A DNA stretch of 64,000 nt from assembly GCA_963702445.1 (NCBI GenBank), contig CAVPCZ010000012.1, positions 193,199 through 257,198 of the forward strand. Reading direction: 5' to 3'. This DNA comes from Ignavibacteriota bacterium (GTDB taxonomy: Bacteria > Bacteroidota > Ignavibacteria > UBA10030 > UBA6906). Of this stretch, positions 22,617 through 45,962 are shown one piece after another. The notes beneath the pieces are model-generated. The model worked only from the letters and a program-made list of their open reading frames with translations. It made no database searches and was not told where the DNA came from. Every line of letters starts with the position of its first letter. Within the stretch, counting starts at the first letter, position 1. Position numbers and translations under genes: made by a program.

Positions 22617-22631
22617 TCAACATGCGTGCCA
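22617..22631 (-). promoter_or_regulatory. Sigma-54-type -24/-12 promoter candidate upstream of the haem-lyase gene
   Basis: The minus strand reads TGGCACGCATGTTGA. The -24 TGGCACG is perfect with correct N4 spacing, and the -12 is TTGA instead of TTGC. A GGAG sits 7 nt before the ATG at 22581. Confidence 0.5.
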
Positions 22632-22710: not shown

Positions 22711-22728
22711 TTTCCAATACCTGGGAAT
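22711..22728. promoter_or_regulatory. Inverted repeat TTTCC-N8-GGAAT, candidate enhancer (UAS) for the sigma-54 activator
   Basis: tttcc aatacctg ggaat, centred ~90 bp upstream of the -24 GG at 22629-22630. The same half-sites, spacing and distance occur at 35233-35250. Confidence 0.45.
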
Positions 22729-22743: not shown

Positions 22744-22780
22744 CAAAAAAAGCTCCCGGCCCTTTTAGGGGGGGCCGGGA
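22744..22780 (-). terminator. Rho-independent terminator ending the cytochrome operon
   Basis: On the minus strand, CCCGGCCC-cccctaaaa-GGGCCGGG is followed by AGCTTTTTTTG. It lies 63 nt downstream of the lipoprotein cytochrome stop at 22843. Confidence 0.65.
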
Positions 22781-22842: not shown

Positions 22843-24246
22843 CTAGAAGCTCCGCTCGGTATTGAAGGCGTTTACTTTGCCGTTGATGTGTTTGGTCTTG
22901 TCGATGATATTGCCGGAGCCGTTGACGACTCCGGGGTGACAGTTGACGCAGCTGGTGAGCGTCGCGGATGTATGGCCGGCCGGAGGCAGGCCGTGACAGC
23001 TTCCGCATGCGCCGTCGGTGCTTCCGCCGTTCCAGGATGGTGCGAAGTTCGTCCCCGCCATCACGCTATCCGTGAAGGCGAACGAGAAGGAAGATGTGGC
23101 GCGCGAAAGACGCCAGGCCCCATGGCAGTATGTATTGCTGCACTTGAATGTTGTGGTGCCGTAGGCCGGAACCGGCAGGTAGTTCCCGCCGGTTCCGGTG
23201 GCAAGACGCGCCAGCGTATCCCGGAACACGACTTCGGCCGGCAATTGTGTGTCAACGTGCCCGGGGGGGAACGTCTGGGCGGGCACCAGATGGCATTCGG
23301 CACATTTCACGGATTTGCCCAGGTTTCCGGAGACAAGATGCTTCTGATGCGCCCCGATGGCGTGAACGACGGGCGGATTGTCCTGTGAATCCCCCAGGAC
23401 AGTCTTGGGCGGTGCGGCGGAGAGAGCATCGCCCGAGGCGGCGCGGAACTGACCGTGACACGTGTTACAGGCTTCAGGGGATTTCGGCGTGCCGCCGGCA
23501 TCGGCATGGCAGGGAACAGTGGAACAGCTCACATTCACCACCGGACCGCCGGTATACGATGCGCCGTGACAGGTTTTGCATTGCGCCAGGGGATACCCCT
23601 TACTCAGCAGATAGCCGGGATGTCCTGACGATGCCTGGAAGACGGTGTGCGGATAGGAAGCATGGCAGGTGAAGCATGATACACCGCTTGTTCCACCGGT
23701 ATAATTCTCACCATGGCACGCGGCGCATTCCGTCAGCTGCCAGTTCTTTCCTTTCAGGTAGCGGCCGTGAGACGCCGTTGATGCGGGATTGCCCCATCCG
23801 GTGCGGTGGGGATACGAAGCATGGCAGGTGTAGCAGGAAACACCGCTTGTGCCGCCCGAGAAATCCGCGCCGTGACAGGCGGCGCAATCGTCCAGCGTCC
23901 CCATGTCCAGGCGCAGGAACTTCCCATGGAACGTCGTCGCGGCTGTATCCACCCAGCCGGGTTTGTGCGGATAGGACGTGTGACAGCCGTAGCACGAAAC
24001 GCCGCTCGTGCCTCCCGAATAGGCCTTCGAATGGCACGACACGCAGTCCGTGTTCTCGTACTGCGGTCCCGACAGTACGGTGCCGTGAAAGGCCGGAGAG
24101 GCGGGATCATTCCAGCCGGTCTCATGAATGCCCTGCGGGGCCATGGGAGCGGGAAGATCTTGTTTCAGCTCGCTGCAGGCCCCGAGCAGCAATGCCGTCG
24201 TGAGCAGAGCGAACGTCGCCGGAAATCGATGAAAGTGTACGCGCAT
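22843..24246 (-). CDS. Multihaem c-type cytochrome lipoprotein, 13 haem motifs (11 CxxCH + 2 CxxxxCH)
   Basis: Lipobox ALLLGAC at residues 18-24. CxxCH x11, plus CSTVPCH (23506-23526) and CSNTYCH (23122-23142), both verified from the DNA. The C-terminal CxxxxCH...CxxCH pairing resembles the Geobacter-type C4xCH/C2xCH domain. Confidence 0.88.
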   Translation of the reverse strand: MRVHFHRFPATFALLTTALLLGACSELKQDLPAPMAPQGIHETGWNDPASPAFHGTVLSGPQYENTDCVSCHSKAYSGGTSGVSCYGCHTSYPHKPGWVDTAATTFHGKFLRLDMGTLDDCAACHGADFSGGTSGVSCYTCHASYPHRTGWGNPASTASHGRYLKGKNWQLTECAACHGENYTGGTSGVSCFTCHASYPHTVFQASSGHPGYLLSKGYPLAQCKTCHGASYTGGPVVNVSCSTVPCHADAGGTPKSPEACNTCHGQFRAASGDALSAAPPKTVLGDSQDNPPVVHAIGAHQKHLVSGNLGKSVKCAECHLVPAQTFPPGHVDTQLPAEVVFRDTLARLATGTGGNYLPVPAYGTTTFKCSNTYCHGAWRLSRATSSFSFAFTDSVMAGTNFAPSWNGGSTDGACGSCHGLPPAGHTSATLTSCVNCHPGVVNGSGNIIDKTKHINGKVNAFNTERSF

Positions 24247-24262
24247 GGGTCCTCCGCCCTCC

Positions 24263-25465
24263 TTAGCCGTGACAGTAACCGCAGAAGTTTCTTCCCTTCA
24301 CGCCATCGGGTCGGGCATTCAGGTCTGTGTGACAGTTGAAGCATGTGGCCCCGGCACTGGTATGCCAGGGTCCGTGCTCATCCTTCAAAAAAGAACCGGG
24401 ATGTGTGCGCGGGTCGGTTCCCCGTATGCCGTCGGCGTCAACATGACAGGTGACGCATACCGGATCGTTGCCCTGCGTGTCGTGGCAGCTCACACAGCTC
24501 TCGATATCGCGCCGCGCGAGGGTTGCATGGGTACCGCCGCCGCTGCCGACACCGATGGTGGCAAACCCCGCCCCCAGGTGCCAGGCCGGCGTGAACGCCT
24601 GCGAGGTGATGTTGTCGCCCGTCGCATGACATTCCGCGCAGAATTCCTGCTGCGAATGGCAGCCGTAGCAGTCGGCGCTCTTCGACTTCGCATCGATGCC
24701 ATGGGTGAACCGGTAGTTCATGTCGTGTGCGAGCTGCAGGCTCATCTGTTGCGAGCCGTTTCCCGGAAACGTCCGCGGGGTGGGATCGGCCATCAGGGCG
24801 CCCTGGCCGAACTGCGCCAGCGCGGCGGGGGCATGACACTCGGCACAGAACGTCTGTGTGTGGCAGGTGGAGCAGCTGGTTTCCAGTGCTCCGACCCGGG
24901 TCAGCTGCTTGTGCTCCTTTTTGAAGTTTCCCACCAGGTGGTCGGGTGGAACGAGCTGCACAAAGCTGGTATGACACGCCTCACACGCGTTGGTCACCTT
25001 CCGGTCGTTGTGGCAGGTGTTGCAGGTCGCCATCGAAGGCATGTGTTTCGGTGCAGCGTAATCGGCCTCTTCGAGTCCGGCATGGCAGGTCGTGCACTGG
25101 ACGTCTTTCTGTGAAACATGCCGTTCATGGGAGAAGAGCAGCTCGCGCACGGCGGGAGCGGCAGGCTGGATATTGTCGGGATCCAGATGGCAGTAGCTGC
25201 ACTGGTTGCCCAGCTGCTCCTCGTGGCAGGACTGACAGTTGTCGTGGCCCGCACGGAGATTGTCGGACGCCAGTTTGCTTGTGGCTGCCGGGTGGCAGTT
25301 TTCGCACGCCACGCCGGCGTCGGCGATATGCGTCTTGTGGGAGAACTTCAGCTGCTTGTTGTCGGCCCGGTCGGGCCACCCGTTCCGGAGGGCGGGTTTG
25401 TGGGCGACCGCGGTGATCAGCCCGGCGGCAACAATGAGCAGGAAAACCAGATAACGGCGGATCAT
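24263..25465 (-). CDS. Periplasmic 14-haem c-type cytochrome
   Basis: N-terminal signal or anchor (MIRRYLVFLLIVAAGLITAVA) and 14 CxxCH motifs in 400 aa. The start overlaps the beta-barrel stop by ATGA (25462-25465). Confidence 0.9.
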   Translation of the reverse strand: MIRRYLVFLLIVAAGLITAVAHKPALRNGWPDRADNKQLKFSHKTHIADAGVACENCHPAATSKLASDNLRAGHDNCQSCHEEQLGNQCSYCHLDPDNIQPAAPAVRELLFSHERHVSQKDVQCTTCHAGLEEADYAAPKHMPSMATCNTCHNDRKVTNACEACHTSFVQLVPPDHLVGNFKKEHKQLTRVGALETSCSTCHTQTFCAECHAPAALAQFGQGALMADPTPRTFPGNGSQQMSLQLAHDMNYRFTHGIDAKSKSADCYGCHSQQEFCAECHATGDNITSQAFTPAWHLGAGFATIGVGSGGGTHATLARRDIESCVSCHDTQGNDPVCVTCHVDADGIRGTDPRTHPGSFLKDEHGPWHTSAGATCFNCHTDLNARPDGVKGRNFCGYCHG

Positions 25466-26772
25466 TGTGCGCCCTCCCCTTTGAAGATGGACAGCCGTTG
25501 CGCGAACCAGTACATCAGCTTCACCTGCAGGCGCAGATCACGCTGGGAGATTTTGTTCGTCAACCATTGCCCCTGCACGTCGAAGGAGAACGCCTGTGTG
25601 GGGCGGACGATCGCGCCGAGCAGCACCGACAGGGCGTTATCGCGTGAGCTTTCTTTGCTCAGGCGGTAGGATGCATACGAAAGCCCGGCGGTCGGGATCA
25701 CGGTCCGGCCGAAGAACGGGTACGATCCCTGGAGGCTGACCGACTGCAATTCTCCTGCATAGCCGTCGCTGCCGGTATACGCGAGGCTGCCGTAGCCGTT
25801 GTTCACGCCCACGCTCCAGCGCGTGCTCTGCTCGTCGGTATAGCTGACGCTCGCCACCCGGGCGAAGGCGCGGAGGAGGGGGGTAAAACCGTACTCCACG
25901 CCTCCCTCGATTTCATTCACCGCATTGGCGACAAACGCCGAGAATATGGAGTTGTACGAGAGTCGCGGCGCGCGGTGAATGTAGTCCGCGGTCAGGGACA
26001 GCGCCTCGGTCACGTACACCCGCGCACCGCCCTGTGCCCGTGCGGTGCGGGATCCGGCGAAGTCATAATCGTACCTTCCGTACGCGGAGAAGCGGCCGGC
26101 ATATTCGTACCGTGCTTCCGCACTGGCCACTTCCTGGGCCGGCGAATCGTTTGCGATATAGTACGACACCGGGGCAAACGAGGTATCGCGCGCGCGGACG
26201 GTCCAGTACGGGTCTCGCTCCTCGTGCCGGTTCATGTAGCTCAGGCCGATGCGTGCGCCCGGCAGGAGTGTTGTCACCACCTGCCCGCCGAAGTGGTAGT
26301 TGTCGTGCAGGTTTTCCCGGACACCCGTGAAGTCCGGGCTGACCGTTGAGCCGGCAAAACCCGTCACCGTCACCTTCTGCTGGAGAAATCGTGCGCGGGC
26401 GAGAAATCCGTCTATCGTCCCGACTCCTGCGCCTGCATACACCGCCTGCCGTCCGACGTTCAGGTCAAGTACCTTGCCGATGTTGGCCCAGGTCAGGTAG
26501 AGGTTATAGAAGCGCACGCGCCCGACGTCGCCGAAGTCCCCGGCCAGATTGGCCGCCCCCTGGATGAAGGTGTTCACGGAAACGTCGCCCTGCGTCATGG
26601 AAAGCTGGATATTCTGGAAGGCGCGAATGCGCTGGTGGGACACGCCCACCGTATCGAACTGTTCCCAGCCGTAGAAGGATGTCGCCAGACGTCCCGTCAC
26701 CAGCTGCGCGGGCGCGCCGGCGACGCAGACCAGAATCAGCAGGGCGAGGGGGAGAGAGCGTGGTGTCTTCAT
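25462..26772 (-). CDS. Predicted outer-membrane beta-barrel (porin-like) protein of a porin-cytochrome module
   Basis: Signal peptide MKTPRSLPLALLILVCVAGAPAQ from ATG 26772. The remaining ~410 aa show alternating hydrophobic/polar strands rich in Y/G/S/T/R with no Cys and no haem motif, and an aromatic-rich C-terminal region (LMYWF). Barrel call by composition and pattern only. Confidence 0.65.
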   Translation of the reverse strand: MKTPRSLPLALLILVCVAGAPAQLVTGRLATSFYGWEQFDTVGVSHQRIRAFQNIQLSMTQGDVSVNTFIQGAANLAGDFGDVGRVRFYNLYLTWANIGKVLDLNVGRQAVYAGAGVGTIDGFLARARFLQQKVTVTGFAGSTVSPDFTGVRENLHDNYHFGGQVVTTLLPGARIGLSYMNRHEERDPYWTVRARDTSFAPVSYYIANDSPAQEVASAEARYEYAGRFSAYGRYDYDFAGSRTARAQGGARVYVTEALSLTADYIHRAPRLSYNSIFSAFVANAVNEIEGGVEYGFTPLLRAFARVASVSYTDEQSTRWSVGVNNGYGSLAYTGSDGYAGELQSVSLQGSYPFFGRTVIPTAGLSYASYRLSKESSRDNALSVLLGAIVRPTQAFSFDVQGQWLTNKISQRDLRLQVKLMYWFAQRLSIFKGEGAQ

Positions 26773-26816
26773 ACACAGTTCCCTTTTGTTGCCGCCTCTT
26801 CGAAAGGTGTACCCGT

Positions 26817-28316
26817 TCAGAGACCGGAATGGCATTCGACGCAGTTGGTCTCCTGCCATGCATCGCCGATATCCTCGGGGTGCTGGAACGGAAGTCCGGC
26901 CACGGTGAGCGTCTGCGGCACGGGATCCGTCCCCTGATACAGAATCGTATGACAGCTGTTACAGTCCTTGCTGATGCGCTTCCCGTCCGCGCTCACATGT
27001 TTCCCGTCATGGCAGCGAAAACAGCCGAGGTCTGTCATATGGCCGATATGGCTCGGGTAGGCGCTCCAGCGTACATTCATGAGGGGAAAGAAGTTCTTCC
27101 GGTATTGCGCAACAAGCTCCTGTCCGGCCGCGAGAATGCGCGCTCCTTCGGTGGCGGCCACCTGCGGATACTCGCGTTCATAGTAGGCGCGCAGCAGGTG
27201 CGGTATGCTGTCCGCCGCTTCCCCGGCTGTGGTATAGGGACGTTTCAGCAGATCCATTGCTGTTTCACGGACACGCGGCAGCGAGGGGCTTATCGTTCCG
27301 CGCGTCAGGCTCCGGTCCACGATGCGGGCGGGGGGAAGATAAATGTGGGATGGGCGGTTGTGGCAATCCATGCAATCCATGCGCGACCACTCCCCACTCC
27401 GCAGGCCGGCGGTGTCCGCCGGCATTTCTTCGGCGGCATACTCGGTGACCGTACCCGTGCGTTGATCTCTGACGCGAACCAGGGGGATCGACTGACGGAG
27501 GGAATCCACGGCAACGTACGTCACTTCATTGGCGGGGTTCACGTGCCAGTGGATGCCGTTGGCGGGTCCCCGTTCTTCATTCCCGCCGCCGATTTTCATC
27601 AGCAGCGCGAGAGTCCACCGGGTGTTCGCTTCATCGGACTTGAAATAGGTGTTGACGTATTTCTTTTCCCCGGCGAAATGGGACGGCCAGTGGCACTGCT
27701 CACAGGTTTCCCGGGCGGGGCGCAGGTTCTTGATGGGGGTAGGGATCGGCCGGGGGTACACGTTGGCAAGCACGGCGTACACCTGGTACGCCCCGGAAAG
27801 TTTGGACTTGACATACCATCCGGCACCCGAGCCGACGTGGCAGTCAACACACTTGACCCGTGCGTGCGGCGAGTTCAGGTAGGCCGTATACTCCGGTTCC
27901 ATAACATCATGACAGGTTGCGCCGCAGAAGGGCACCGATTCCGTCCACTCAAACGTCCGGTAACTCCCGTACGCCGTGAAGAGCAGGACAACGGCCGTCA
28001 CCCCGGCGAAGAGCGCAAGTGCGGACCGGTGATGCGGCACGCCGAGGTCGATCGTGAGGACCTTTTTACTCGCCGGCCGGCCGGCACGCAGACGCCGCCG
28101 CTCCCGTACCGCTCCCACAGGGATCATCAGCAGCCCCAGCAGCAACGGCACCGGCAGGGCGATATACGAGATGATCCCGATGTACGCCGGCGCGTTTTCC
28201 TGCACCATCTCCACCATGGTGAGAAACAGAATCGTCAGAAGGCACGCGCTCGCCAGGGCTGCCCCCACAATACTTATGGGGTTGTAGAAAATCTCCGGGA
28301 GCTTTCTTTTTTTCAT
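26817..28316 (-). CDS. Membrane-anchored heptahaem c-type cytochrome (NapC/NirT-like region; ImcH-like architecture)
   Basis: Three N-terminal hydrophobic segments are followed by FCGATCHDVM (CxxxCH, 27909-27926, checked in the DNA) and six CxxCH motifs. The 499-aa length and layout match the description of the Geobacter inner-membrane quinol oxidase ImcH. Confidence 0.75.
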   Translation of the reverse strand: MKKRKLPEIFYNPISIVGAALASACLLTILFLTMVEMVQENAPAYIGIISYIALPVPLLLGLLMIPVGAVRERRRLRAGRPASKKVLTIDLGVPHHRSALALFAGVTAVVLLFTAYGSYRTFEWTESVPFCGATCHDVMEPEYTAYLNSPHARVKCVDCHVGSGAGWYVKSKLSGAYQVYAVLANVYPRPIPTPIKNLRPARETCEQCHWPSHFAGEKKYVNTYFKSDEANTRWTLALLMKIGGGNEERGPANGIHWHVNPANEVTYVAVDSLRQSIPLVRVRDQRTGTVTEYAAEEMPADTAGLRSGEWSRMDCMDCHNRPSHIYLPPARIVDRSLTRGTISPSLPRVRETAMDLLKRPYTTAGEAADSIPHLLRAYYEREYPQVAATEGARILAAGQELVAQYRKNFFPLMNVRWSAYPSHIGHMTDLGCFRCHDGKHVSADGKRISKDCNSCHTILYQGTDPVPQTLTVAGLPFQHPEDIGDAWQETNCVECHSGL

Positions 28317-28443
28317 CGTATGGAAAGGTGGATGCGGGGCATCGGGCAGGAGACGGGACCGGCCGGTTCGGCGCGGTCCCGCGTACCCGTCGTCTGTTTC
28401 GGTTTACTTCTTGGGAAGCTTGTGCGCGATTTTCGCCCACCAC

Positions 28444-28944
28444 TCATCGTACTTGAAACCCTTTGAACGTCGGGCTTCCGGCGTTGTGGCAGGTTTCGCA
28501 CGTCTTCTTTGCCGCATCACCTGTCACGAGACCGGCCTCGACGGCCTTCGCCTTGTTTTCGGCCTTCGTATGCAGCGTCTTGAAGCCGGATGCCGCACCG
28601 TGGCACGCTTCGCAGGTGACACCTTCCTTCATGTCGAAGGTCTTCTCTACATTGGCGGCGGTTCCACCACCGGCCACATGGCATTTCAGGCACTCGGGGC
28701 TTTCGGCCGGCGGTTTGGCAAGACCCTTTTCCTTGCCGATCTTCTTGGCCGCTTCGCCCTCCAGGGTCTTGTACGCCCCGGCGTGCGCGGTTTTGGCCCA
28801 GATCGTGAACGCCTCTCCCTTGTCCTTCGCCTTGTGACACATGGCGCAGGTTTTGGTGCCCACGAATTTGTTCTCCGCCACCGCTGTGCCACCGCACAAC
28901 ATCAGCGCAACGGCGAACAGAAGGACCACACAGGCTGTTTTCAT
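28444..28944 (-). CDS. Small periplasmic tetrahaem cytochrome c
   Basis: Signal peptide MKTACVVLLFAVALMLCGGTAVA and four CxxCH motifs (CAMCH, CLKCH, CEACH, CETCH) in 166 aa. GGGAGGAAG precedes the ATG. Confidence 0.88.
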   Translation of the reverse strand: MKTACVVLLFAVALMLCGGTAVAENKFVGTKTCAMCHKAKDKGEAFTIWAKTAHAGAYKTLEGEAAKKIGKEKGLAKPPAESPECLKCHVAGGGTAANVEKTFDMKEGVTCEACHGAASGFKTLHTKAENKAKAVEAGLVTGDAAKKTCETCHNAGSPTFKGFQVR

Positions 28945-29008
28945 TTACGGCTTCCTCCCAGAAATGATGGATGATCAGAAATGTACACGAAAACAATACA
29001 AGATGCCA

Positions 29009-29863
29009 CTACTGGTATGCAAACACCATTGCATAGATGATCCATACGACGATGCTGAAGCCGGTACCCAGGGCCGTCCATGCGAACACCCGGATTGCCC
29101 TGATGACGATCGCCGGATAGGGTTCCGCCAGGCGCGACTCCAGTTCGCCGGATGCCGCCACCGATGCGTATTCGGCGGGTTTGTCCATCTTCAACTCCTC
29201 CACCGGCATCCGTCCGGTGAAGATGACCATATCCATCGGAAATTTTTCCGGGCGCAGGTGGGTGTTGAAAAAGTGGATGGTGAAGATGAACCCGGTGGCC
29301 AGCAATGCCTCGTCACTGTGTATGATCGTCGCCACGTTGATCATCCAGCCCGGGAACAGCTGCGTGAAGAATTCAGGGAACCAGAGAGTGAAGCCGGTCG
29401 ACCCGATCACCACCATCCCCCAGAAGACCGCGAAATAGTCGAACTTCTCCCAGTAGGTCCACCGGCCGAATTCCGGGCGGGGCCCCATACCCAGAAACCA
29501 TTTCACGGATGCAACGAACTGGTGCAGATCGGTTTTCGTCGGCAGCATGGTGTCGGGACCGAACAGGAGACCCTTCCAGCCGCCGATTCCCCGCCGCTTC
29601 CGCCGGAACAGGTCCACGATGTGGACCAGGAACACGCCCACCATGATGGTGGCCGCAAACCGGTGGAAATAACCGGCGGTCTCATACCCGCCGAAGAGGT
29701 GGGAGAGAAACGACGCCCAGCCGGTATAGGAAAACTTCAGAGTCATTCCCGTCAGTGCCAGGCTCAAAAAACTGACGATCATCAGGATATGCAGGATCCG
29801 GTTGAGCCGTGTAAACCGGACGTACTGGCGTTCGTTGCTGTTATCCACTGTGCTGTGCTCCAT
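29009..29863 (-). CDS. Cytochrome b subunit (HydC/FdnI-like, polytopic)
   Basis: YVRFTRLNRILHILMIVSFLSLALTGMTL aligns with YLRMTLGERIQHGTLLVSFITLVLTGFAL in the C-terminal domain of the 31858-33993 protein. It has conserved His in TM helices and 4-5 TM segments. Start uncertain: ATG 29863 or GTG 29929, both overlapping the upstream gene. Confidence 0.78.
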   Translation of the reverse strand: MEHSTVDNSNERQYVRFTRLNRILHILMIVSFLSLALTGMTLKFSYTGWASFLSHLFGGYETAGYFHRFAATIMVGVFLVHIVDLFRRKRRGIGGWKGLLFGPDTMLPTKTDLHQFVASVKWFLGMGPRPEFGRWTYWEKFDYFAVFWGMVVIGSTGFTLWFPEFFTQLFPGWMINVATIIHSDEALLATGFIFTIHFFNTHLRPEKFPMDMVIFTGRMPVEELKMDKPAEYASVAASGELESRLAEPYPAIVIRAIRVFAWTALGTGFSIVVWIIYAMVFAYQ

Positions 29864-31853: not shown

Positions 31854-31857
31854 GTGC

Positions 31858-33993
31858 TTACACCTTCTCCTCTTTGGGTTCTTCAGAATGCTGCCGGCGT
31901 CTGTACGTCTCCAGCTCAAGAGGATGTTCCTCCTCCATCTCTTCTTCCGTCAGCGTACCCTTCCAGAACGCCAGGTTGATCGGGTAGGTATCGGGGTTGA
32001 AGATCACAAAATAGAAATGCCAGACGATGATGGCGAGTGTGGCGAGCCAGGCTTCATAATAGTGCACCGTACGTGCAACATCCCACCAGAGTTTCGTGAG
32101 AAGGCCCAGGAAGATGTTGTCGAACCAGAGAATGACCCCCGTCAGACCCATAACACCCGTTCCCCAGACCAGCGCCCAGTACTCGCTCTTTTCTATGTAG
32201 CTGAAACGGCCGAATTTGGGTTTGTCCGGTGAGATGCCGAAGTTGTACTTCAGGACATTCAGCGCGTCAAACAGATCCTGCCGCCGGGGCAGAAGGTCCC
32301 GGAGCAGTTCTTTGCCGCGGGGGACAAAGAAGAGATACCAGAGGTGGTAGAGACTCGCGGCAACCATGGCCACGGCGGCGATACGGTGCAGGATGCCCCG
32401 CAGTTCAAACATCCACGGACTGACACTGCGTATCGGCGCCACCCACCAGGCATCCGGATACCGGAGGGCGAACCCCGTCAGGACGAGCGTGATAAAACTG
32501 ACGAGCAGTGTACCGTGCTGGATCCGTTCGCCGAGGGTCATGCGGAGATAGAGCCGGTGTGCGGTGTGTTTGCGGGGCAGTTCCCCCCGGCGGTACTGGA
32601 GCTGCCGCCGGGACTTCTTGACAAAGTCCAGCAGATTATGGACAAACATGCCGCCGATCAGCACCACAATCAATACGATATATCCGTTTGAAACGAAATA
32701 TAGCACGCCGTCATGTCCGGATGTGGCGATGACGTGCACCGAACCACGCGTGAAATTCGTGTTCGCGCCGGGATGGCAGGTCCCGCACGTCCTGGTCAGG
32801 TTGTCGGGGTGAATGCGCGAAGAGGGATCCGTTGACGGTTTGATATCATGCACGCCATGGCAGCTTGCACAGTTGGCGACCTCCACCGATCCTGCACGCT
32901 GGGCAAGACCGTGGAAGCTGTCCTCAAAACTCTGGAAGCGGTCACCCGCCAACCCGTACTTTTGCGTCAGCTTAACGGAGCCATGACAGGGAGAGCACAC
33001 CTGCGAGGAGACGTTTGCCGCCGCGACCGGTGAACGGGCGTCTTGCGGCGAAAGAATATTGTGTTCACCGTGACAGTCCGTGCAGGTGGGCGATGCCGTT
33101 ACGCCTCCGGCGAGCGCCTGGCCATGAATGCTTCCGGCGTATTGTGCGCGCGTTTCGCCGTGGCATTTCCCACAGGTACCGGCGATGTTCCTCTTGGCGA
33201 CGGAGGAGGTCGGGTTCGACCCCTTCTTCATGGTGTGGCTGCCGTGACAATCCGTGCAGGCGGCCGCGGAATCGTTGCCCGCCTTGACGGCCTGCCCGTG
33301 CACGCTCTTTTCGTAGCTGGAGACGAAGCCCGCGGAAGGACCGACCCGTTCGCGCACTTCGGGTTTGTCCAGGTGGCAGCTCAGGCACATTCTGGCCTGG
33401 TGTCCGTGGGCCGTGGTGGAACTGCTGTCCCGGGCGGACTGTACTGCATGCTCGCCGTGACAGTCGATGCAGCTGGGCGCACCTTTGACCCCCCGGACGA
33501 GCGCAAGACCGTGGTCAGACTGAAGGAACCGGACGTTGATATCTCCGTGGCATTTTGCACAAATGCCCTCGGCAAACGCAGCCCGGTGCACCGGCTCCTG
33601 GTCCGTCACCCTTTTGACGGAATGCGCCGTGTGACAATCCGCGCACGAGGCGGCGGGACGGTTTCCTTTGACGCTCCGCCCGTGCACGCTCTTTGCAAAA
33701 TCGCTGAACTGATCACCCTCGTGACAGTTCAGGCATTTCACCGGAGTGATCTTCGCCTTATGAGGAAGTTCGGAAGGTTTGAACCCTTCATGACATCCCA
33801 CGCAGCCCAGCGCACTGTGGGCTGAGGAGGCGAACCCTTTGCCTTCGACAAACAGGGAGATCGTCCTCCCCTTCTTCGTCATCGACAAGGAGGCGTCGCT
33901 GTGGCACATGAGGCAATCTTCATCAGATTGCGCCGGCACAAAGGGGGGAAACAGCAATCCCCCCAGTATCAGGGTCATGACGTGTTTCAGCAC
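31858..33993 (-). CDS. Fusion of a 13-haem periplasmic c-type cytochrome with a HydC/FdnI-like cytochrome b membrane domain (CbcL-like)
   Basis: 13 CxxCH motifs are followed by about five TM helices with conserved His. Start taken at GTG 33993 (GGAGAGAAGC upstream, signal peptide LKHVMTLILGGLLFPPFVPAQS); ATG 33978 is possible. ATG 34146 lies upstream of the predicted promoter, so I reject it. Confidence 0.85.
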   Translation of the reverse strand: MLKHVMTLILGGLLFPPFVPAQSDEDCLMCHSDASLSMTKKGRTISLFVEGKGFASSAHSALGCVGCHEGFKPSELPHKAKITPVKCLNCHEGDQFSDFAKSVHGRSVKGNRPAASCADCHTAHSVKRVTDQEPVHRAAFAEGICAKCHGDINVRFLQSDHGLALVRGVKGAPSCIDCHGEHAVQSARDSSSTTAHGHQARMCLSCHLDKPEVRERVGPSAGFVSSYEKSVHGQAVKAGNDSAAACTDCHGSHTMKKGSNPTSSVAKRNIAGTCGKCHGETRAQYAGSIHGQALAGGVTASPTCTDCHGEHNILSPQDARSPVAAANVSSQVCSPCHGSVKLTQKYGLAGDRFQSFEDSFHGLAQRAGSVEVANCASCHGVHDIKPSTDPSSRIHPDNLTRTCGTCHPGANTNFTRGSVHVIATSGHDGVLYFVSNGYIVLIVVLIGGMFVHNLLDFVKKSRRQLQYRRGELPRKHTAHRLYLRMTLGERIQHGTLLVSFITLVLTGFALRYPDAWWVAPIRSVSPWMFELRGILHRIAAVAMVAASLYHLWYLFFVPRGKELLRDLLPRRQDLFDALNVLKYNFGISPDKPKFGRFSYIEKSEYWALVWGTGVMGLTGVILWFDNIFLGLLTKLWWDVARTVHYYEAWLATLAIIVWHFYFVIFNPDTYPINLAFWKGTLTEEEMEEEHPLELETYRRRQHSEEPKEEKV

Positions 33994-34119
33994 GCTTCTC
34001 TCCGGAATCAGACTACCAATGGATATAAGGGGGTCAATCAACATGCCAAGGTTCGATCGTTGAAATTGTTGAAATTTGCCACATCTTCGATCGACACTCA
34101 CTGTCTTTTTTCCCAAAAA

Positions 34120-34136
34120 TGCGATATTGGTGCCGG
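34120..34136 (-). promoter_or_regulatory. Sigma-54-type -24/-12 promoter candidate upstream of the CbcL-like gene
   Basis: The minus strand reads CCGGCACCAATATCGCA, with GG-N10-GC spacing exact (GGCAC ... TCGCA against the consensus TGGCACG-N4-TTGCW). It lies 38 nt after the receiver-gene stop. Confidence 0.45.
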
Positions 34137-34173
34137 AGATTTGCACACCTGGGAAAAGGGTGTCGGGGTGGGA

Positions 34174-34656
34174 TTAGGAAAGGCCTGCGAGGAGATCTTC
34201 CACCCTTTTCGAGATTTGTGCGATCTCAAAGGGCTTATAAAAGACGGAATCTACATGCTCACGGATGGCCCGGTCGAGATTCACCTCCCTGGAATTATAG
34301 ACATACAGGAGGATAATCGGCAGTGTGTGGTTGGCCCCCCGCAACCCATCCAGCCGCTCGATGAGCTTCTCCGAGGGAACCGCATCCACCATGACAAGGT
34401 TTGCGGAATAGTCCGCCGCAAGGCGGTCGAGCATTCCCAGATTCGTTGTCGTGATGACATTATACCTGTCCTGAAACAGCATGGAGAGACTGAAGCAGAA
34501 GTTCAGGTCAGGGCTGTACAGCAGGATCGTCTTCTTGTTTTCACCGACATCCGTATCGGGTGCCCGTGCGTCCTTCCGGTGTTCGGCTTCGCCGTGGTGT
34601 GTTTTCACCGTATATCCTCGGTTCGTGTCACCGCAGATGGAGTTCCTTTTCGACAT
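34174..34656 (-). CDS. Single-domain receiver (CheY-like) protein with a degenerate acidic pocket
   Basis: KKTILLYSPD ... ANLVMVDA ... PIILLYVY ... YKPF follows the REC beta1/beta3/beta4/beta5 pattern, but SPD replaces DD and Tyr replaces the beta4 Ser/Thr. Alternative GTG start at 34608 (GAGGA 6 nt upstream) would remove the 29-nt overlap with uspA. Confidence 0.6.
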   Translation of the reverse strand: MSKRNSICGDTNRGYTVKTHHGEAEHRKDARAPDTDVGENKKTILLYSPDLNFCFSLSMLFQDRYNVITTTNLGMLDRLAADYSANLVMVDAVPSEKLIERLDGLRGANHTLPIILLYVYNSREVNLDRAIREHVDSVFYKPFEIAQISKRVEDLLAGLS

Positions 34657-35104
34657 CCTCTTTTTGAAGGATGTTTTCGCGGAACGGGTGCGGCTTGACG
34701 GTCAACACGGGGATTCCGGAAGATCGGACGATCCGTTCGGCGACGCTGCCCAGAAGCATGTGGCGCAACCCCGTCCGGCCATGCGTGGCAATCACAATCA
34801 GATCGATTCCCTCCTGCTCGGCGAACCGGCGGATCTCCTCCGCGGCTTCCCCTTTTTTCACGACCAGTGCAATACGTGTTTCCGCCGGCACATGGGCATG
34901 CGCGAATTCTTCGAGACTTCTTCTTGCCTCTTCCTCATTCCTCGGATGACCCTCTCTTCCGAGGAACCCTTCCCGGCCATCGACCACATGAAGCAGGAAC
35001 AGGCGGGATGTATACAGGGTGCCGAAGGACGTGGCGTACTCCACGGCTGCCAGCGAGAAGTCAGAAAGGTCGGTGGTGACGAGTATTTTCTTCAGGAAGA
35101 CCAT
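34628..35104 (-). CDS. Universal stress protein (UspA family)
   Basis: KKILVTTDLSDFS ... LFLLHVV ... IDLIVIATHGRTGLRHMLLGSVAERIVRSSGIPVLTV (ATP-binding G-2x-G-9x-G(S/T) type motif). Confidence 0.88.
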   Translation of the reverse strand: MVFLKKILVTTDLSDFSLAAVEYATSFGTLYTSRLFLLHVVDGREGFLGREGHPRNEEEARRSLEEFAHAHVPAETRIALVVKKGEAAEEIRRFAEQEGIDLIVIATHGRTGLRHMLLGSVAERIVRSSGIPVLTVKPHPFRENILQKEDVEKELHLR

Positions 35105-35137
35105 CGTTATGACTCCCGTTGTCCTTACGGGAGTTTT

Positions 35138-35152
35138 TCAAGAGTTGTGCCA
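35138..35152 (-). promoter_or_regulatory. Sigma-54-type -24/-12 promoter candidate upstream of uspA
   Basis: The minus strand reads TGGCACAACTCTTGA: TGGCAC, correct spacing, and a -12 of TTGA as at 22617-22631. It lies ~35 nt upstream of the uspA ATG, with GGGAG as a possible SD. Confidence 0.5.
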
Positions 35153-35232
35153 ACAACGTGGGGGGGGTGCCGGGGCGGAGAGGCCGAAAAATCCCCGTTT
35201 TTGGCTGAAGAAGGGTACTCCCGGCACCCGGG

Positions 35233-35250
35233 TTTCCGAATTGTGGGAAA
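35233..35250. promoter_or_regulatory. Inverted repeat TTTCC-N8-GGAAA, candidate enhancer (UAS) for the adjacent sigma-54 activator
   Basis: tttcc gaattgtg ggaaa, centred ~91 bp upstream of the -24 GG at 35150-35151 and 17 nt downstream of the activator gene stop. Matches the repeat at 22711-22728. Confidence 0.45.
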
Positions 35251-35266
35251 GCAGGCTATGAAATTC

Positions 35267-36631
35267 CTAACCCTGCGAAGGGATATTCAGCTCTTCGATC
35301 TTCCGGTAGAGGGATGAGAGGCTGATACGCAGGGCCTTGGCGGTCAACTCCTTGTTGTACTGGTTGGACCGGAGGACGTGACTGATATACTGCCGCTCGA
35401 ATTCATCCACCGCGTCTTTCATCGACCGGCGCGCATCGAATGCATAAACCGCATCGGTGCGCTGATCGAACAGCGTCGGCAGCTCTCTCTTGGTCAGGAT
35501 AGTCCCCTCCGAAAAGATCACCGCCCGTTCGATGACGTTTTCCAACTCCCGGATCTCACCCTTCCAGGTGTGCGCCATCAGGCATTTCATGACCTCGTTG
35601 TCCACGCCGCGGACATCCTTGTTCATTTCCTTGGCATGCTTTGCCACGAAATGATTCACGAGCATCGGAATATCATCGACACGTTCGGAGAGAGAGGGGA
35701 GCGTCAGCTCGACGATATTCAACCGGTAGAACAGATCCTCCCGGTAGCGGCCCTCTTCCACTTCCTTTGCGAGGTTCTTGTTTGTGGATGCGATAATCCG
35801 CACATCCACGGACATGGGCATTGAGGTGCCGACGGGGGTAATCTCTTTCAGTTCAATCGCCCTCAACAACTTCACCTGCAAGTGAAGGGGGATTTCGCTC
35901 ACCTCATCGAGGAAGAGACTCCCGCCGTCCGCGGCCTTGAAGAACCCCTCCTTGTCCATGGAGGCACCGGTGAAGGCACCGCGTTTATGCCCGAACAGTT
36001 CGCTCTCGAACAGATTTTCCACGATCGCGCCGCAGTTGATCGGGACAAACGCCCGGCCGGCACGATGGCTGCTGAAGTGGATCGCCCGGGCGACCAGTTC
36101 CTTCCCCGTCCCGCTTTTCCCGTTGATAAGCACTGTTCCGTCGGTGACCGCCACCTTTTTGATGGTATCGAACACCCGCTGCATGGCCGGACTCTGTCCG
36201 ACGATCTCGTCGAAGTTGTACTGCCGGTGCAGCTCACCCCGCAACAGCCGGTTTTCCAGACTCACGCGCCGGGTCGCCAGGAGGCGGTTCACCTTCACGA
36301 GCAGTTCATCGAACTCGACCGGTTTGAGGATGTAGTCGACGGCACCCTTGCGCAGTGCGGCGATTGCGGTGTCGATGGACCCGTATGCCGTGATGATCAT
36401 CACCAGCGTTTCGGGGCTAACGGCGGCGACCTGTTCCAGCAGCTCGATCCCTTTCATCTCGGGCATCTCGAGATCCGTGATCACCAGATCGAAGGACTGC
36501 TCCCGGATCAGGTCGAGGGCGAGCTTTCCGTTTGCCGCTTCGCGGACCGTGAAACCCTCTTTGGTCAGGACGAAGGAGAGGGATTCGCGAATGATCTCTT
36601 CATCATCCACGATCAGAATCGTATCAGCCAT
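35267..36631 (-). CDS. Sigma-54-dependent response regulator (NtrC family: REC + AAA+ + Fis-type HTH)
   Basis: REC: ILIVDDEE ... DLVITDLEMPEMKG. AAA+: INGKSGTGKE, ESELFGHKRGAFTGA (GAFTGA loop), and an RxDLYYRL-like EDLFYRLN. C-terminal HTH: NKELTAKALRISLSSLYRKI. The ATG at 36631 follows the kinase stop. Confidence 0.92.
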   Translation of the reverse strand: MADTILIVDDEEIIRESLSFVLTKEGFTVREAANGKLALDLIREQSFDLVITDLEMPEMKGIELLEQVAAVSPETLVMIITAYGSIDTAIAALRKGAVDYILKPVEFDELLVKVNRLLATRRVSLENRLLRGELHRQYNFDEIVGQSPAMQRVFDTIKKVAVTDGTVLINGKSGTGKELVARAIHFSSHRAGRAFVPINCGAIVENLFESELFGHKRGAFTGASMDKEGFFKAADGGSLFLDEVSEIPLHLQVKLLRAIELKEITPVGTSMPMSVDVRIIASTNKNLAKEVEEGRYREDLFYRLNIVELTLPSLSERVDDIPMLVNHFVAKHAKEMNKDVRGVDNEVMKCLMAHTWKGEIRELENVIERAVIFSEGTILTKRELPTLFDQRTDAVYAFDARRSMKDAVDEFERQYISHVLRSNQYNKELTAKALRISLSSLYRKIEELNIPSQG

Positions 36632-38048
36632 GCCGGTATTCCTTGGGATTGAGGGGGAGGGTGACGCAGAAGGAGGTTCCTTTCCCCCGCTCGCTGCGCA
36701 CGGTGATGTCACCGCGGAAACTCCGGACAATGCCGTAACTCACCCAGAGCCCCAGCCCGGTTCCCTCCCCGACGCGTTTTGTCGTGAAAAACGGCTCAAA
36801 CACTTTCGCCAGATGTTCGCTGGTGATGCCGCTGCCGTCATCGGTAATGCGGACCCGGATCCACTCATCATCACGTTCGAAGTCGGTCGTGATCGTTCCG
36901 CGCTTCCCCTGCAGCGCATCGACCGCATTCAGAAGAATGTTGATAAACACCTGGGCGATCTGATCGGGGACGAGGGAAAGGAGAGGAATCTGGTGCCGCA
37001 CGTGGGTATAGAAGGTCACCTCTTTCGCTTTCTTGCCCATCTTCACGATCTCGACGGAATCCGTCAGCAGTTTGACGATGTCCGTGGGCTGGATCTGGTA
37101 GTTGGAGGGCCGGGAAAAATCCACCAGATCACGGATGATCTTGGTGATCCTGTGCACCTGGGACTGGACCAGTCCGAGTTTGTCGCGCGCGAACTCGTCG
37201 TTGATCGTGCGTTGCAGCACCTGCACGATGGAAGAGATGGACGTAAGCGGGTTTCCCACTTCGTGGGCGATGCCCGCGGCGAGGGTCCCGATGCTCTCCA
37301 TCTTCTGGGAATGCATCAGCTGCTGTTCCAGGGCCTTTTGCTCGGTCACGTCGCGGTGTGAACCCAGATACCCCACCACCCGGCCGTCGCCTTCGATGAT
37401 CGGGGAGATGAGCAGCTGCGTATACAGGGGCTGGCCGTCCTTCCGGCGGTTTTCGATTTCGCCGTTCCAGACCTTCCCCGCGCTGATGGTGGACCAGACA
37501 CGCTCCCAGAACTCCTTCGCGTATTTCTTGCTGGATATGACGCTCGGATTGTTCCCGATCAGCTCTTCTTTCGCGTATCCGGTTGCGCGCTCGAACGCGG
37601 GATTGACATAAATCATCCGTCCCATCGCGTCGGTGATTTGAATCGGATTCACCGTGAAGTGCACCACGTTGGAAAACCGGAGGAGGTCCAGCTCTTTCTG
37701 TTTGGATTCAGAAATATCCCTTGCGGTGATGAACACCACCGTCCGGCCGTTTTCCTCGATCCGGCGGATGAACAGGAGTGCGTCCACCGGGTTTCCGGCG
37801 GACTGACGGAAACGCACTTCGCCTCCGGTGAAGCCGTTGCCGGAGGTGACGGATGAGAAGGCGGGGCGTGGGGAATCGGAGGTCAGCAGGGATGAAAACG
37901 GAATGGTCCCGTTAAGGACGACCGGAAGGCCGGTTACTTCCCGCGCCCTGCTGTTGCAGTCGATGAGCTTGAGGTCCTCGGACACTACGAAACACATGTC
38001 GGGGACCACATCCAACACCCGCTGGAGTATATTGAGAGGAACAGGCAT
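36624..38048 (-). CDS. Cytoplasmic PAS-domain sensor histidine kinase
   Basis: No TM segment and two PAS-like regions (one with the typical MIYVNPAFERATGYAKEELIG). H-box AAGIAHEVGNPL, N-box NILLNAVDA, G-boxes DDGSGI and GTGLGL. Confidence 0.9.
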   Translation of the reverse strand: MPVPLNILQRVLDVVPDMCFVVSEDLKLIDCNSRAREVTGLPVVLNGTIPFSSLLTSDSPRPAFSSVTSGNGFTGGEVRFRQSAGNPVDALLFIRRIEENGRTVVFITARDISESKQKELDLLRFSNVVHFTVNPIQITDAMGRMIYVNPAFERATGYAKEELIGNNPSVISSKKYAKEFWERVWSTISAGKVWNGEIENRRKDGQPLYTQLLISPIIEGDGRVVGYLGSHRDVTEQKALEQQLMHSQKMESIGTLAAGIAHEVGNPLTSISSIVQVLQRTINDEFARDKLGLVQSQVHRITKIIRDLVDFSRPSNYQIQPTDIVKLLTDSVEIVKMGKKAKEVTFYTHVRHQIPLLSLVPDQIAQVFINILLNAVDALQGKRGTITTDFERDDEWIRVRITDDGSGITSEHLAKVFEPFFTTKRVGEGTGLGLWVSYGIVRSFRGDITVRSERGKGTSFCVTLPLNPKEYRHG

Positions 38049-38156
38049 ACGGCAGAGTGATTCAATATACCAAATTGCCGGAGGATATTCAAAGACAGAG
38101 CCGCGGGAGAGAGCACGCTCCCCCCCGCGGCCCGGCGGGCGGCGGCAACTTCCGGA

Positions 38157-39437: not shown

Positions 39438-39479
39438 AGTATCCTTCGGGTGAATGTGTGAGGTACGTGCAATGTCCGG

Positions 39480-44174: not shown

Positions 44175-44175
44175 C

Positions 44176-45939: not shown

Positions 45940-45962
45940 CCGCCACATCACCAGGACAAGGA

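Follow-up and report, generated by a model that had tools for sequence, protein, structure and literature searches.

How might a bacterium move respiratory electrons from its quinone pool to the cell surface, and is the switch for doing so encoded beside the machinery? The question is raised by a 64-kb stretch of DNA from an Ignavibacteriota bacterium (contig CAVPCZ010000012.1), analysed as a whole and referred to here as the window, to whose positions all coordinates refer. Between 22843 and 38048 lie twelve genes for a two-component system, inner-membrane and periplasmic multihaem cytochromes, and an outer-membrane barrel with its own cytochromes; all genes, promoters and elements of this cluster are on the minus strand. 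The initial annotation described the locus as a multihaem wire from the quinone pool to the cell surface with its own sigma-54 switch, and as no described system. The wire and its switch are supported by the presence of all tiers, by their topology, by a 22-strand barrel and by conserved promoters, whereas the claim of novelty is not supported. The explanation favoured here, with moderate confidence, is that the cluster is a complete porin-cytochrome (Pcc)-type extracellular electron transfer pathway, switched as a unit by a cytoplasmic redox-sensing two-component system via sigma-54.

According to this explanation, a soluble kinase would sense the cytoplasmic redox state through a flavin-type PAS domain and phosphorylate an NtrC-type activator, which would bind TTCCCA-N6-GGAA-like elements ~100 nt upstream of three sigma-54 promoters. 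The activator would thereby switch on a universal stress protein gene (usp) with a receiver-like gene, an eight-gene cytochrome operon, and an operon of CcmF/NrfE haem lyase, ferredoxin and Acg genes, the co-induced lyase supplying capacity for attaching 70 haems. At the inner membrane, ImcH, a fused CbcL-type bc module and a split one would oxidise menaquinol as parallel quinol entry points, probably suited to acceptors of different potentials like their Geobacter counterparts. Electrons would then pass to a c554-like tetrahaem shuttle, or straight to a long 14-haem protein, which inside the 22-strand barrel would pass them to a 13-haem surface lipoprotein reducing extracellular or insoluble acceptors (Fe(III)/Mn(IV) minerals, humic substances or partner cells).

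Translation of the window confirmed all twelve open reading frames (ORFs), on one strand and within about 15 kb as first described, and a direct recount of haem-attachment motifs in the translations returned the same total of 70 (13+19+4+7+14+13) across six neighbouring proteins. The ORF at 31858-34146 has 13 CXXCH motifs, that at 29841-31919 has 19 and that at 28444-28944 has four; the ORF at 26817-28316 has six CXXCH and one CX3CH, that at 24263-25465 has 14 CXXCH, and that at 22843-24246 has 11 CXXCH and two CX4CH. Since the remaining window ORFs with 100 aa or more (40,854 residues over all frames) hold one CXXCH in total, none having two or more, this clustering of haem sites is far beyond chance. 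The assignments of kinase, sigma-54 activator, Usp, cytochrome b, NapC/NirT-like region and lipobox all agree with Pfam and NCBIfam. PDB sequence searches with the cytochromes returned generic relatives only, namely c7 domains, ActA of alternative complex III (ACIII), NrfH and FdnI, and scans of the window for Rfam families and tRNAs gave no matches.

Some boundaries differ from those first given. Several longest-ORF starts are overlong: the barrel gene begins at 26772, the activator gene probably begins at 36631, and the start of the 13-haem gene is 33993 or 33978. Gaps between genes had been put at 0-127 nt, but two are larger, the one preceding usp measuring 162 nt and the one preceding the 13-haem gene ~180 nt, and both contain sigma-54-type promoters. 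The unit had also been limited to 22843-38048, overlooking a co-regulated CcmF/NrfE operon at 19023-22581, so that the functional unit reaches past its noted start.

The arrangement is widely conserved. One genome per species was scanned and 32 related loci were found (handles L001 and so on) in metagenome-assembled genomes (MAGs) of Ignavibacteriota/Bacteroidota from soil, fen, groundwater and other sources; all window proteins were compared with these loci by tblastn, and gene order was judged where the contig reaches. The order of the core genes is kept across these 32 species-level genomes, the result of a synteny check that the initial annotation had proposed. It starts with the regulators, the 13-haem fusion, an optional 19-haem protein with cytochrome b, the tetrahaem cytochrome and ImcH, and goes on with the barrel, the 14-haem protein, the lipoprotein, a CcmF-like protein, a ferredoxin, an optional Acg oxidoreductase and a Cys/Met pyridoxal-phosphate (PLP) enzyme. 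Full gene order is kept down to ~55% protein identity and core synteny down to 38% barrel identity. In all loci the barrel gene is followed by the 14-haem cytochrome gene, usually overlapping, and then by the multihaem lipoprotein gene, and distant genomes (38-45% barrel identity) keep the four-gene form of Ignavibacterium album, L028 and L031 exactly so. The GC content of the cluster is uniform and equal to that of its flanks, and the flanking genes are syntenic, which together point to a vertically inherited core locus. A recently acquired island is ruled out by the uniform GC and by the S-adenosylmethionine (SAM)-cycle and Cys/Met flanks, syntenic across species.

Control through sigma-54 is indicated by three promoter-like sites. 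The pattern TGGCAY-N5-TTGM has just three matches in the 64 kb, both strands considered, all of them on the minus strand and in three larger intergenic gaps: promoter 1 (TGGCACAACTCTTGA, 35138..35152) before usp, promoter 2 (TGGCATGTTGATTGA, 34034..34048) before the cytochrome operon, and promoter 3 (TGGCACGCATGTTGA, 22617..22631) before the haem-lyase operon, 36 nt from the CcmF/NrfE gene, whose ATG is preceded at 8 nt by GGAG. Promoter 2 lies inside the longest ORF of the 13-haem protein, so that the true start of this gene must lie downstream of it. All three sites have the canonical -24/-12 spacing, with TTGA instead of TTGC at -12, and the window has no perfect match to TGGCAC-N5-TTGC. 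An orthologous site to promoter 1 is present in nine loci including the window (the others being L001, L003, L005, L008, L009, L011, L012 and L017), and one to promoter 2 in 11 loci including the window by the strict motif. Promoter 3 is nearly invariant in 24 related loci, its spacer included, with the strict motif in 22 counting the window. Distant relatives have a TGGCAC-N5-TTGC/A site directly before the barrel gene. As a separate observation, TTGA at -12 also occurs in closer relatives and TTGC in distant ones, and may represent a lineage-specific promoter variant.

Phylogenetic footprinting revealed a conserved element 96-107 nt upstream of every one of the three promoters. Element 1 (TTCCCACAATTCGGAA, 35234..35249), a candidate activator site, lies 97 nt upstream of the -24 of promoter 1 and has a footprint in nine loci; element 2 (TTCCCAGGTGTGCAAA, 34140..34155) lies 107 nt upstream of promoter 2, with a footprint in 11 loci; and element 3 (TTCCCAGGTATTGGAA, 22712..22727) lies 96 nt upstream of promoter 3, with a footprint in 22 loci. 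The pattern TTCCCA-N6-SRAA matches these three elements and nothing else in the window, a count that is circular; the evidence for the elements therefore rests on their conservation across species.

The candidate for the protein serving these promoters is encoded at 35267..36631, an NtrC-type sigma-54 enhancer-binding response regulator with REC, AAA+ and HTH_8 domains (Pfam Sigma54_activat, E 8e-68, Response_reg and HTH_8). Its translation has the GAFTGA loop and the receiver residues DD...D...K, its probable start reads MADTILIVDDE, and from there it overlaps the stop of the kinase gene by 8 nt. The sensor histidine kinase (36624..38048) is composed of a PAS domain, a flavin-type PAS domain, HisKA and HATPase (Pfam PAS_8, PAS_9, HisKA and HATPase_c), and by hydropathy has no hydrophobic segment, making it cytoplasmic. 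A REC/GAFTGA-AAA+/HTH activator beside a HisKA/HATPase kinase is the pairing of NtrB/NtrC-type systems; the best NCBIfam matches of the two proteins are AtoS/AtoC-like and sub-cut-off. The second PAS domain of the kinase (residues 125-247) matches the PAS chain of MmoS (3ewk, E 5.5e-34; best stretch 136-247), and also the PAS domain of NifL (2gj3, E 3.5e-19) and LOV-PAS fusion proteins. PAS domains of MmoS and NifL bind flavin adenine dinucleotide, and the adduct cysteine of LOV domains is missing from the kinase domain, which reads NNPSVIS at this point. Judged by these resemblances, the kinase input is most likely cytoplasmic flavin-based redox sensing.

The first two genes after promoter 1 would belong to the same circuit. 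The universal stress protein (UspA family, 34628..35104; Pfam Usp, E 3e-30) is kept at the same position in relatives at 55-85% identity. The adjacent gene (34174..34656, start codon uncertain) encodes a divergent single-domain receiver-like protein, also kept in relatives, and had been called an atypical receiver. That name finds a weak similarity to receivers in its favour, with an OmpR-receiver match at E 1e-4 and top PDB matches that are all receiver domains (E 0.05-0.8), in which VMVD and YKPF align with the phospho-Asp and Lys positions; a Pfam search with the protein gave no match.

Together with the likely ends of transcripts, the promoters suggest four transcription units: kinase-activator; usp and the receiver-like gene; the cytochrome operon, with eight genes in roughly 11 kb; and CcmF/NrfE, ferredoxin and Acg. 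The kinase-activator pair is preceded by a sigma-70-like promoter candidate at 38064..38092 (TTGAAT-17-TATATT with an extended TG, 16 nt upstream of the kinase ATG), a consensus match only. A terminator-like hairpin at 38098..38133, with a 16-bp GC-rich stem and a T-rich tail, ends the upstream gene, an S-adenosylhomocysteine (AdoHcy) hydrolase gene by its Pfam AdoHcyase match, and marks the upstream boundary of the unit. The clean terminator claimed after the last gene is indeed there: an intrinsic terminator of the cytochrome operon follows the lipoprotein gene at 22745..22779 (stem CCCGGCCC/GGGCCGGG, then U7), with a dG of -22.4 kcal/mol over a 51-nt stretch, found by reading and folding the sequence and not reported by the automatic terminator scan.

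A looser form of regulation would explain part of these observations. Another enhancer-binding protein, or a global nitrogen or energy signal, could serve the promoters, leaving the kinase-activator pair, Usp and the receiver-like gene as neighbours by descent. Adjacency alone is weak evidence for a dedicated switch, because the whole neighbourhood, both SAM-cycle flanks included, is syntenic across the lineage. The same view draws on activator binding being a prediction from sequence, on an upstream motif that was found post hoc, on the sub-cut-off AtoS/AtoC-like matches of the pair, and on the distant L028 and L031, which keep the core module with neither the motif nor the regulators within reach. 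Set against it, the 64 kb contain only three sigma-54-type sites, one of which starts right after the activator gene; all three have the upstream element in common, at the same distance, and it is conserved between genomes with proteins of only 55-70% identity; the kinase-activator pair is retained beside the cluster wherever the flank is long enough to show it; and control of cbcBA by BccR in Geobacter is a direct precedent. Regulation from elsewhere is accordingly considered unlikely, and the dedicated two-component switch is retained. An extension of that switch is also conceivable, in which the three matched sigma-54 promoters would co-induce the whole wire, its own haem lyase and stress/redox helpers (Usp, ferredoxin and Acg), making the locus a portable and self-sufficient regulon; this is offered tentatively, as possible but doubtful.

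The inner-membrane tier would provide the entry of electrons from the quinol pool. The gene at 31858..33993 encodes a CbcL-type quinol dehydrogenase in which a 13-haem c domain (13 CXXCH) is fused to an FdnI/HydC-type dihaem cytochrome b with matches to Ni_hydr_CYTB (PF01292, E 4e-13, residues 535-717), the formate dehydrogenase gamma subunit and FdnI. Hydropathy places its five transmembrane helices at 484-502, 542-560, 589-607, 657-675 and 698-716, and histidines occur in helices 0, 1 and 2, with a pair spaced by 14 residues in helix 4, as aligned by eye to the description of CbcL. The protein has the features that define the CbcL/MtoC/MtrH group, being one polypeptide with a motif number in the range of 3-23 CXXCH, a C-terminal dihaem cytochrome b and a helix number in the range of five to six. 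The 19-haem periplasmic cytochrome that follows (29841..31853, 19 CXXCH) has a C-terminal membrane anchor at 630-648 bearing a histidine, and is paralogous to the c domain of the fusion, anchor helix and histidine included (BLASTP E 3e-52). Its 19 motif positions are colinear with those tabulated by Zhong & Shi (2018) for a fused 952-aa Ignavibacteria CbcL homologue, OGU58019.1.

The gene at 29009..29929 (start at 29929 or 29863; Ni_hydr_CYTB, E 2e-10) encodes the cytochrome b subunit belonging to the 19-haem c subunit; it is 34% identical to the b domain of the fusion (BLASTP E 2e-34) and has helices above the hydropathy threshold at 45-63, 87-105, 166-184 and 286-304, with a fifth at ~200-230 by eye. 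The pair departs from the single polypeptide that defines CbcL and represents a split version of it. The initial annotation had listed three candidate quinol-oxidising systems: the membrane cytochromes are all there, yet they belong to two families only, CbcL-type (fused and split) and ImcH. Three independent quinol-oxidase families are thus ruled out, the 19-haem protein with its cytochrome b being a split paralogue of the 13-haem fusion. As an observation on this pair, the last part of the 19-haem gene and the start of the cytochrome b gene (29841-29929, minus strand) share 23-89 nt, read in different frames, and both the overlap and the frame offset are also found in the independent assemblies of L001, L005, L006, L009 and L018. 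The overlap may be simple translational coupling, or there may be a programmed frameshift yielding some 19-haem/cytochrome b fusion protein.

The third membrane cytochrome, an ImcH-family inner-membrane heptahaem quinol dehydrogenase (26817..28316, 499 aa), has seven haem motifs and three N-terminal transmembrane helices. The hydropathy peaks at 9-27, 52-70 and 99-117 compare with helices at 13-35, 45-67 and 100-122 in GSU3259, the ImcH of Geobacter, and the protein matches NapC/NirT (PF03264, E 2.6e-13, residues 100-185), NrfH (TIGR03153, E 2.7e-13) and the NrfH structure 2j7a (E 4e-4). Its CX3CH at 131 and CXXCH at 156, 205, 315, 432, 452 and 492 are colinear with the motifs at 132, 156, 205, 311, 428, 448 and 486 listed for GSU3259 (Zhong & Shi 2018, Table S3), being at most six residues off over 500 aa. 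ImcH as published combines three N-terminal helices and NapC/NirT homology with seven motifs, CX3CH leading and CXXCH in the other six; this architecture is found in full, and with the motif map it upholds the label of an ImcH-like heptahaem protein. A near-identical motif map is tabulated for PIU45462.1, a 498-aa ImcH homologue from an Ignavibacteriales MAG of 59% GC (Zhong & Shi 2018). The tetrahaem cytochrome gene at 28444..28944 encodes a small c554-like protein (four CXXCH, Sec signal peptide; Pfam Cytochrome_C554, E 8e-17), a putative periplasmic shuttle, and in relatives is always beside the barrel or ImcH gene.

These modules would run outward in the proposed pathway, and outward flow is favoured because ImcH is so far known only from reducers, Ignavibacteria with Pcc clusters occur on anodes and in Fe(III)-reducing sediments, and Melioribacter roseus reduces Fe(III). 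ImcH has so far been implicated in quinol oxidation only, and the Pcc-bearing Ignavibacteria are enriched in both those settings. The conduit could instead run inward or both ways, feeding the quinone pool via the CbcL-type modules with electrons drawn from Fe(II), a cathode, reduced humics or a partner cell; the organism would then be an iron oxidiser or electrotroph. Fe(II) oxidisers, too, possess homologues of CbcL, MtoC and MtrH, quinol oxidation and quinone reduction cannot be told apart by any sequence feature, porin-cytochrome wires are in principle reversible, and many sister genomes insert a Rieske/cytochrome b/11-haem complex. Rieske/cytochrome b complexes can work in reverse in acidophilic iron oxidisers. 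Opposing this, besides the distribution of ImcH and the settings of its bearers, the window contains no Cyc2, carbon-fixation or other iron-oxidation marker, and the Usp, Acg and ferredoxin genes resemble a hypoxia or low-redox response rather than lithotrophy, a weak point that rests on a likeness to the DosR regulon. Usp, ferredoxin and Acg-family FMN oxidoreductases recall members of the mycobacterial hypoxia (DosR) regulon. Inward flow is judged quite unlikely, and outward transfer remains the direction proposed here.

The inserted complex of the sister genomes, which the window does not have, lies between ImcH and the barrel in L006, L011, L012, L014, L018 and L026 (~6.2-9.9 kb) and in L016 (1-3.1 kb), and consists of a Rieske protein (~150 aa) with a twin-arginine translocation (TAT) signal, a cytochrome b (359 aa) and an 11-haem cytochrome. 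By its composition it is a further quinol-oxidising complex, and the cluster looks modular in its quinol-oxidising inputs.

Whether electrons would leave the cell depends on the outer-membrane module. A different reading would see a periplasmic respiratory or storage network, in which a soluble or small acceptor (polysulfide, nitrite, selenite or chelated metals) enters through the barrel as an ordinary porin and no electrons pass the outer membrane as such. The barrel gene (25462..26772) encodes a protein with a Sec signal peptide, the putative sheath of the conduit. A first AlphaFold2 model based on 20 homologues had a mean predicted local distance difference test (pLDDT) of 64.7; a rerun with 120 homologues reached 85.9, with a predicted template-modelling score (pTM) of 0.75, and shows 22 long strands and a short hairpin. 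The annotated outer-membrane barrel thus models as a large barrel and the failed modelling named as its refutation did not occur. Foldseek returned outer-membrane barrels only, the top query-normalised TM-scores (0.50-0.55) being the ushers FimD and PapC and those against classical porins ~0.3-0.45, so that the fold is closer to usher-size barrels than to 16-18-strand porins; the substrate channels AlgE and OprD, also matched, speak for the porin view. FimD and PapC usher pores have 24 strands. The barrel has no Pfam family, and its 120-sequence profile found no PDB sequence relative, MtrB included. In total 219 homologues were detected, of which the few with a source name come from Ignavibacteriae/Bacteroidota MAGs.

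The barrel stop overlaps the start of the 14-haem gene by 4 nt, in line with the translational coupling first proposed. This gene (24263..25465) encodes a 400-aa periplasmic cytochrome with a signal peptide and 14 CXXCH, a putative barrel insert whose 14 motifs are all kept in 22 loci and whose weak relatives are c7-type nanowire domains and ActA of ACIII. The following gene (22843..24246) encodes the 13-haem outer-membrane lipoprotein cytochrome that had been recognised at the outset, with the lipobox LLGAC, 11 CXXCH and two CX4CH, a GSu_C4xC__C2xCH domain (TIGR01904, E 2e-11) and a lipobox kept in orthologues; it would be the terminal reductase at the surface. In orthologues (L001-L029) the lipobox cysteine opens the conserved stretch C-[SGAT]-[EK]-L-[KR]-x-[DE]-[LI]-P-x-P, the post-cysteine motif reading K-D-D or K-D-E in some, which resembles the Bacteroidetes lipoprotein export signal (LES), K-(D/E)2. 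On this likeness the lipoprotein may be exposed at the cell surface. Barrel, 14-haem protein and lipoprotein would form one complex. A porin-like barrel with an adjoining secreted multihaem cytochrome and an adjoining multihaem lipoprotein cytochrome, the composition that defines Pcc clusters, is present in the window.

The porin view takes from this module that surface exposure is a prediction from sequence, and from the literature that I. album has the core module without growing on Fe(III)/Mn(IV) oxides, Shi (2014; PMC4245776) suggesting other substrates. In L016, one of the 32 loci, the region directly upstream of the barrel (4763-9793) holds a pentahaem cytochrome, a TAT-signal molybdopterin oxidoreductase (817 aa), a 4Fe-4S protein and an NrfD-type protein, a set that may be an ACIII/Qrc-like quinone module or a true complex iron-sulfur molybdoenzyme (CISM; Psr/Ttr-type) reductase. 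The latter would favour a soluble acceptor, and the former fits the set equally well. An adjacent soluble-substrate reductase was found neither in the window nor in 31 of the 32 loci, so that consistent adjacency to one is ruled out, with L016 as the caveat. Of the outcomes that the initial annotation had named as refuting, none was observed. With no catalytic reductase in those clusters, a barrel/14-haem/lipoprotein order that is the signature of porin-cytochrome conduits, a 22-strand barrel without plug domain that far exceeds what a diffusion porin needs, and a conserved LES-like motif on the lipoprotein, the periplasmic network is the least probable of the alternatives and improbable in itself.

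Several points nevertheless weigh against the extracellular pathway with its sigma-54 switch. The -12 element reads TTGA and is not the canonical TTGC, no rpoN gene was seen within the 64-kb window, and the pattern TTCCCA-N6-SRAA was derived from the same three sites that it matches, which makes its chance estimate circular. Public copies of the barrel are all annotated as hypothetical, and no member of the family has been studied experimentally. The likeness to Geobacter and I. album proteins was judged by architecture, published motif tables and descriptions and not by alignment. Flow in the opposite direction could be read from the CbcL homologues (MtoC) of Fe(II) oxidisers and from the Rieske/cytochrome b insert of sister genomes. 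Finally, the porin and periplasmic cytochrome of I. album are only distantly related to other Pcc proteins (Shi 2014, PMC4245776), and this species, the only cultured bearer of the core module in the literature covered, showed no growth on Fe(III) or Mn(IV) oxides (PMC4245776).

The operon downstream of the cytochrome genes begins with a CcmF/NrfE-family cytochrome c haem lyase (20347..22581, 744 aa, 13 transmembrane helices; Pfam Cytochrom_C_asm and CcmF_C), with NCBIfam matches to NrfE (E 1e-78) and the CcmF/NrfE subfamily (E 4e-77), both sub-cut-off. Its gene comes after the lipoprotein gene in about 24 loci. It is speculated, by analogy to NrfE and its CXXCK site, that the lyase is specialised for the CX3CH and CX4CH sites. 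A small 4Fe-4S ferredoxin (20093-20365, minus strand; Fer4_13, E 7e-16), kept in nearly all loci, and an Acg-family FMN oxidoreductase (19023-20096, minus strand; E 4e-79, above cut-off), absent from some loci, follow with overlaps of 19 and 4 nt, and probably share the sigma-54 transcript of the lyase. Because genes here overlap by 4-19 nt, the transcript possibly runs on into the Cys/Met enzyme gene.

Around the cluster lie sulfur-amino-acid and SAM-cycle genes (17698-20365 and 38157-40622), in an arrangement kept across species: the upstream flank encodes SAM synthetase and AdoHcy hydrolase, the downstream flank a Cys/Met PLP enzyme. Elsewhere in the window are a HemN-like radical-SAM enzyme (7304-8827, minus strand), acting in anaerobic haem synthesis or as a haem chaperone; a polyprenyl synthetase (42691-43899, plus strand), possibly for the menaquinone side chain; and PorZ-like type IX secretion (54179-56449, plus strand) and BamB-like (49966-51129, plus strand) proteins. 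The PorZ-like protein fits a haem-rich anaerobe of the Fibrobacteres-Chlorobi-Bacteroidetes (FCB) group. Three long ORFs at 9821-12517 (plus strand), 44101-45951 (minus strand) and 60884-62125 (minus strand), of 898, 616 and 413 aa, have no Pfam match, and some may be spurious at 60% GC.

If the extracellular pathway is as proposed, the lineage would count among the iron, manganese and humic-substance respirers of soils and peat, with a bearing on carbon and metal cycling. The barrel family has more than 200 homologues, and neither these nor the copies in the 32 soil, fen and groundwater Ignavibacteriota/Bacteroidota genomes are annotated. The three conserved sigma-54 promoters with their upstream element offer concrete reporters for the switch of the pathway, and the 11-kb operon with all tiers and an adjoining haem lyase is a compact candidate for rebuilding extracellular electron transfer outside Proteobacteria and Desulfobacterota. 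Were the more doubtful reading of a portable regulon also true, abundant uncultured soil and peat Ignavibacteriota would respire metals or humics under regulation, and the unit, of ~19 kb or, if Acg is left out, 17 kb, would be a candidate for transplanting the pathway. The locus is less a surprise than a clean example, open to testing and probably ecologically widespread.

The closest known arrangement is IALB_1837-1840 of I. album, which has the same order and parts: a periplasmic cytochrome, a porin-like barrel, a 14-haem cytochrome and an outer-membrane cytochrome with atypical motifs (PMC4245776). By published description, the barrel, 14-haem protein and lipoprotein of the window correspond to IALB_1839, IALB_1838 and IALB_1837, and the tetrahaem gene by position to IALB_1840; IALB_1838, with 400 residues and 14 haem motifs, is the largest Pcc periplasmic cytochrome found (Shi 2014, PMC4245776). 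Unlike in I. album, the module of the window shares an operon with ImcH and two CbcL-type modules, which precede it, and is accompanied by the kinase-activator pair, three sigma-54 promoters and a co-regulated haem lyase.

Of the Geobacter systems, OmaB-OmbB-OmcB and ExtABCD are built on the same three-part plan, in which a barrel is joined by two multihaem cytochromes, one periplasmic and the other an outer-membrane lipoprotein, and the lipoprotein of the window shares the CxxxxCH/CxxCH domain (TIGR01904, E 2e-11). The Geobacter periplasmic Pcc cytochrome has eight haems as against 14 here, and the barrels have no detectable common family. In Geobacter the quinol dehydrogenases are encoded elsewhere, imcH being monocistronic and constitutive, whereas ImcH of the window lies inside the conduit operon under candidate sigma-54 control; both ImcH proteins (GSU3259, 507 aa; window, 499 aa) have three N-terminal helices, a NapC/NirT-like region and CX3CH as the first motif. 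With CbcL (GSU0274) the fusion shares an N-terminal multihaem c domain and an FdnI/HydC-type dihaem cytochrome b with histidines in its helices, and differs in five as against six helices, the c domains of the window having 13 and 19 haems in place of nine or seven (CbcL, CbcBA). The split pair mimics the layout of CbcA, with its C-terminal histidine-bearing helix, and CbcB (GSU0593-0594), but its cytochrome b has homology to the CbcL-type domain, whereas CbcB reportedly has none to CbcL. The upstream region of cbcBA is alike in having a sigma-54 promoter, a REC-AAA+-HTH activator and a small response-regulator gene; there a sigma-54 promoter and the enhancer-binding protein BccR drive the operon as redox potential falls, the first genes of the operon encode small proteins and a response regulator, and Bacteroidetes and Calditrichaeota have been noted to carry similar clusters. 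The activator of the window is paired with a kinase and co-directional, and the arrangement of BccR is divergent.

The Mtr system of Shewanella and Rhodoferax (CymA, MtrCAB and MtrH) is alike in its working, and all tiers are sometimes in one cluster (R. ferrireducens). MtrB has a 26-strand barrel, as against 22 strands in the window. The 20 barrel homologues gave no match to MtrB_PioB and the barrel no sequence match to the MtrCAB structure, and the DmsE/MtrA-family model TIGR03508 scores 60-90 bits against a cut-off of 192, on the CbcL-type proteins and not on the 14-haem protein. With no MtrB_PioB match, no PDB relative of the barrel and sub-threshold DmsE scores, an Mtr-type conduit is ruled out.

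That inner-membrane and periplasmic cytochromes accompany Pcc clusters has been stated as a general pattern (PMC4245776). Pcc clusters have been reported repeatedly in I. album, M. roseus and Ignavibacteria MAGs, and the tables of Zhong & Shi (2018) include Ignavibacteria homologues of ImcH and CbcL whose motif maps are the same. The initial claim of no described system is overtaken by these, together with BccR-type control of cbcBA. Within the library searched for literature joining Ignavibacteria, CbcL and extracellular electron transfer, neither Zhong & Shi (2018) nor a 2023 ImcH preprint describes the integrated operon or its promoters, and the multi-omics paper on M. roseus does not mention the cluster. 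The organisation appears to be new, with all tiers in one sigma-54 operon, a three-promoter regulon with a common upstream element, a flavin-PAS kinase and a co-regulated CcmF/NrfE lyase. The system represents no new category, and extends known Pcc, ImcH and CbcL biology, with Geobacter-style sigma-54 control, to the FCB group.

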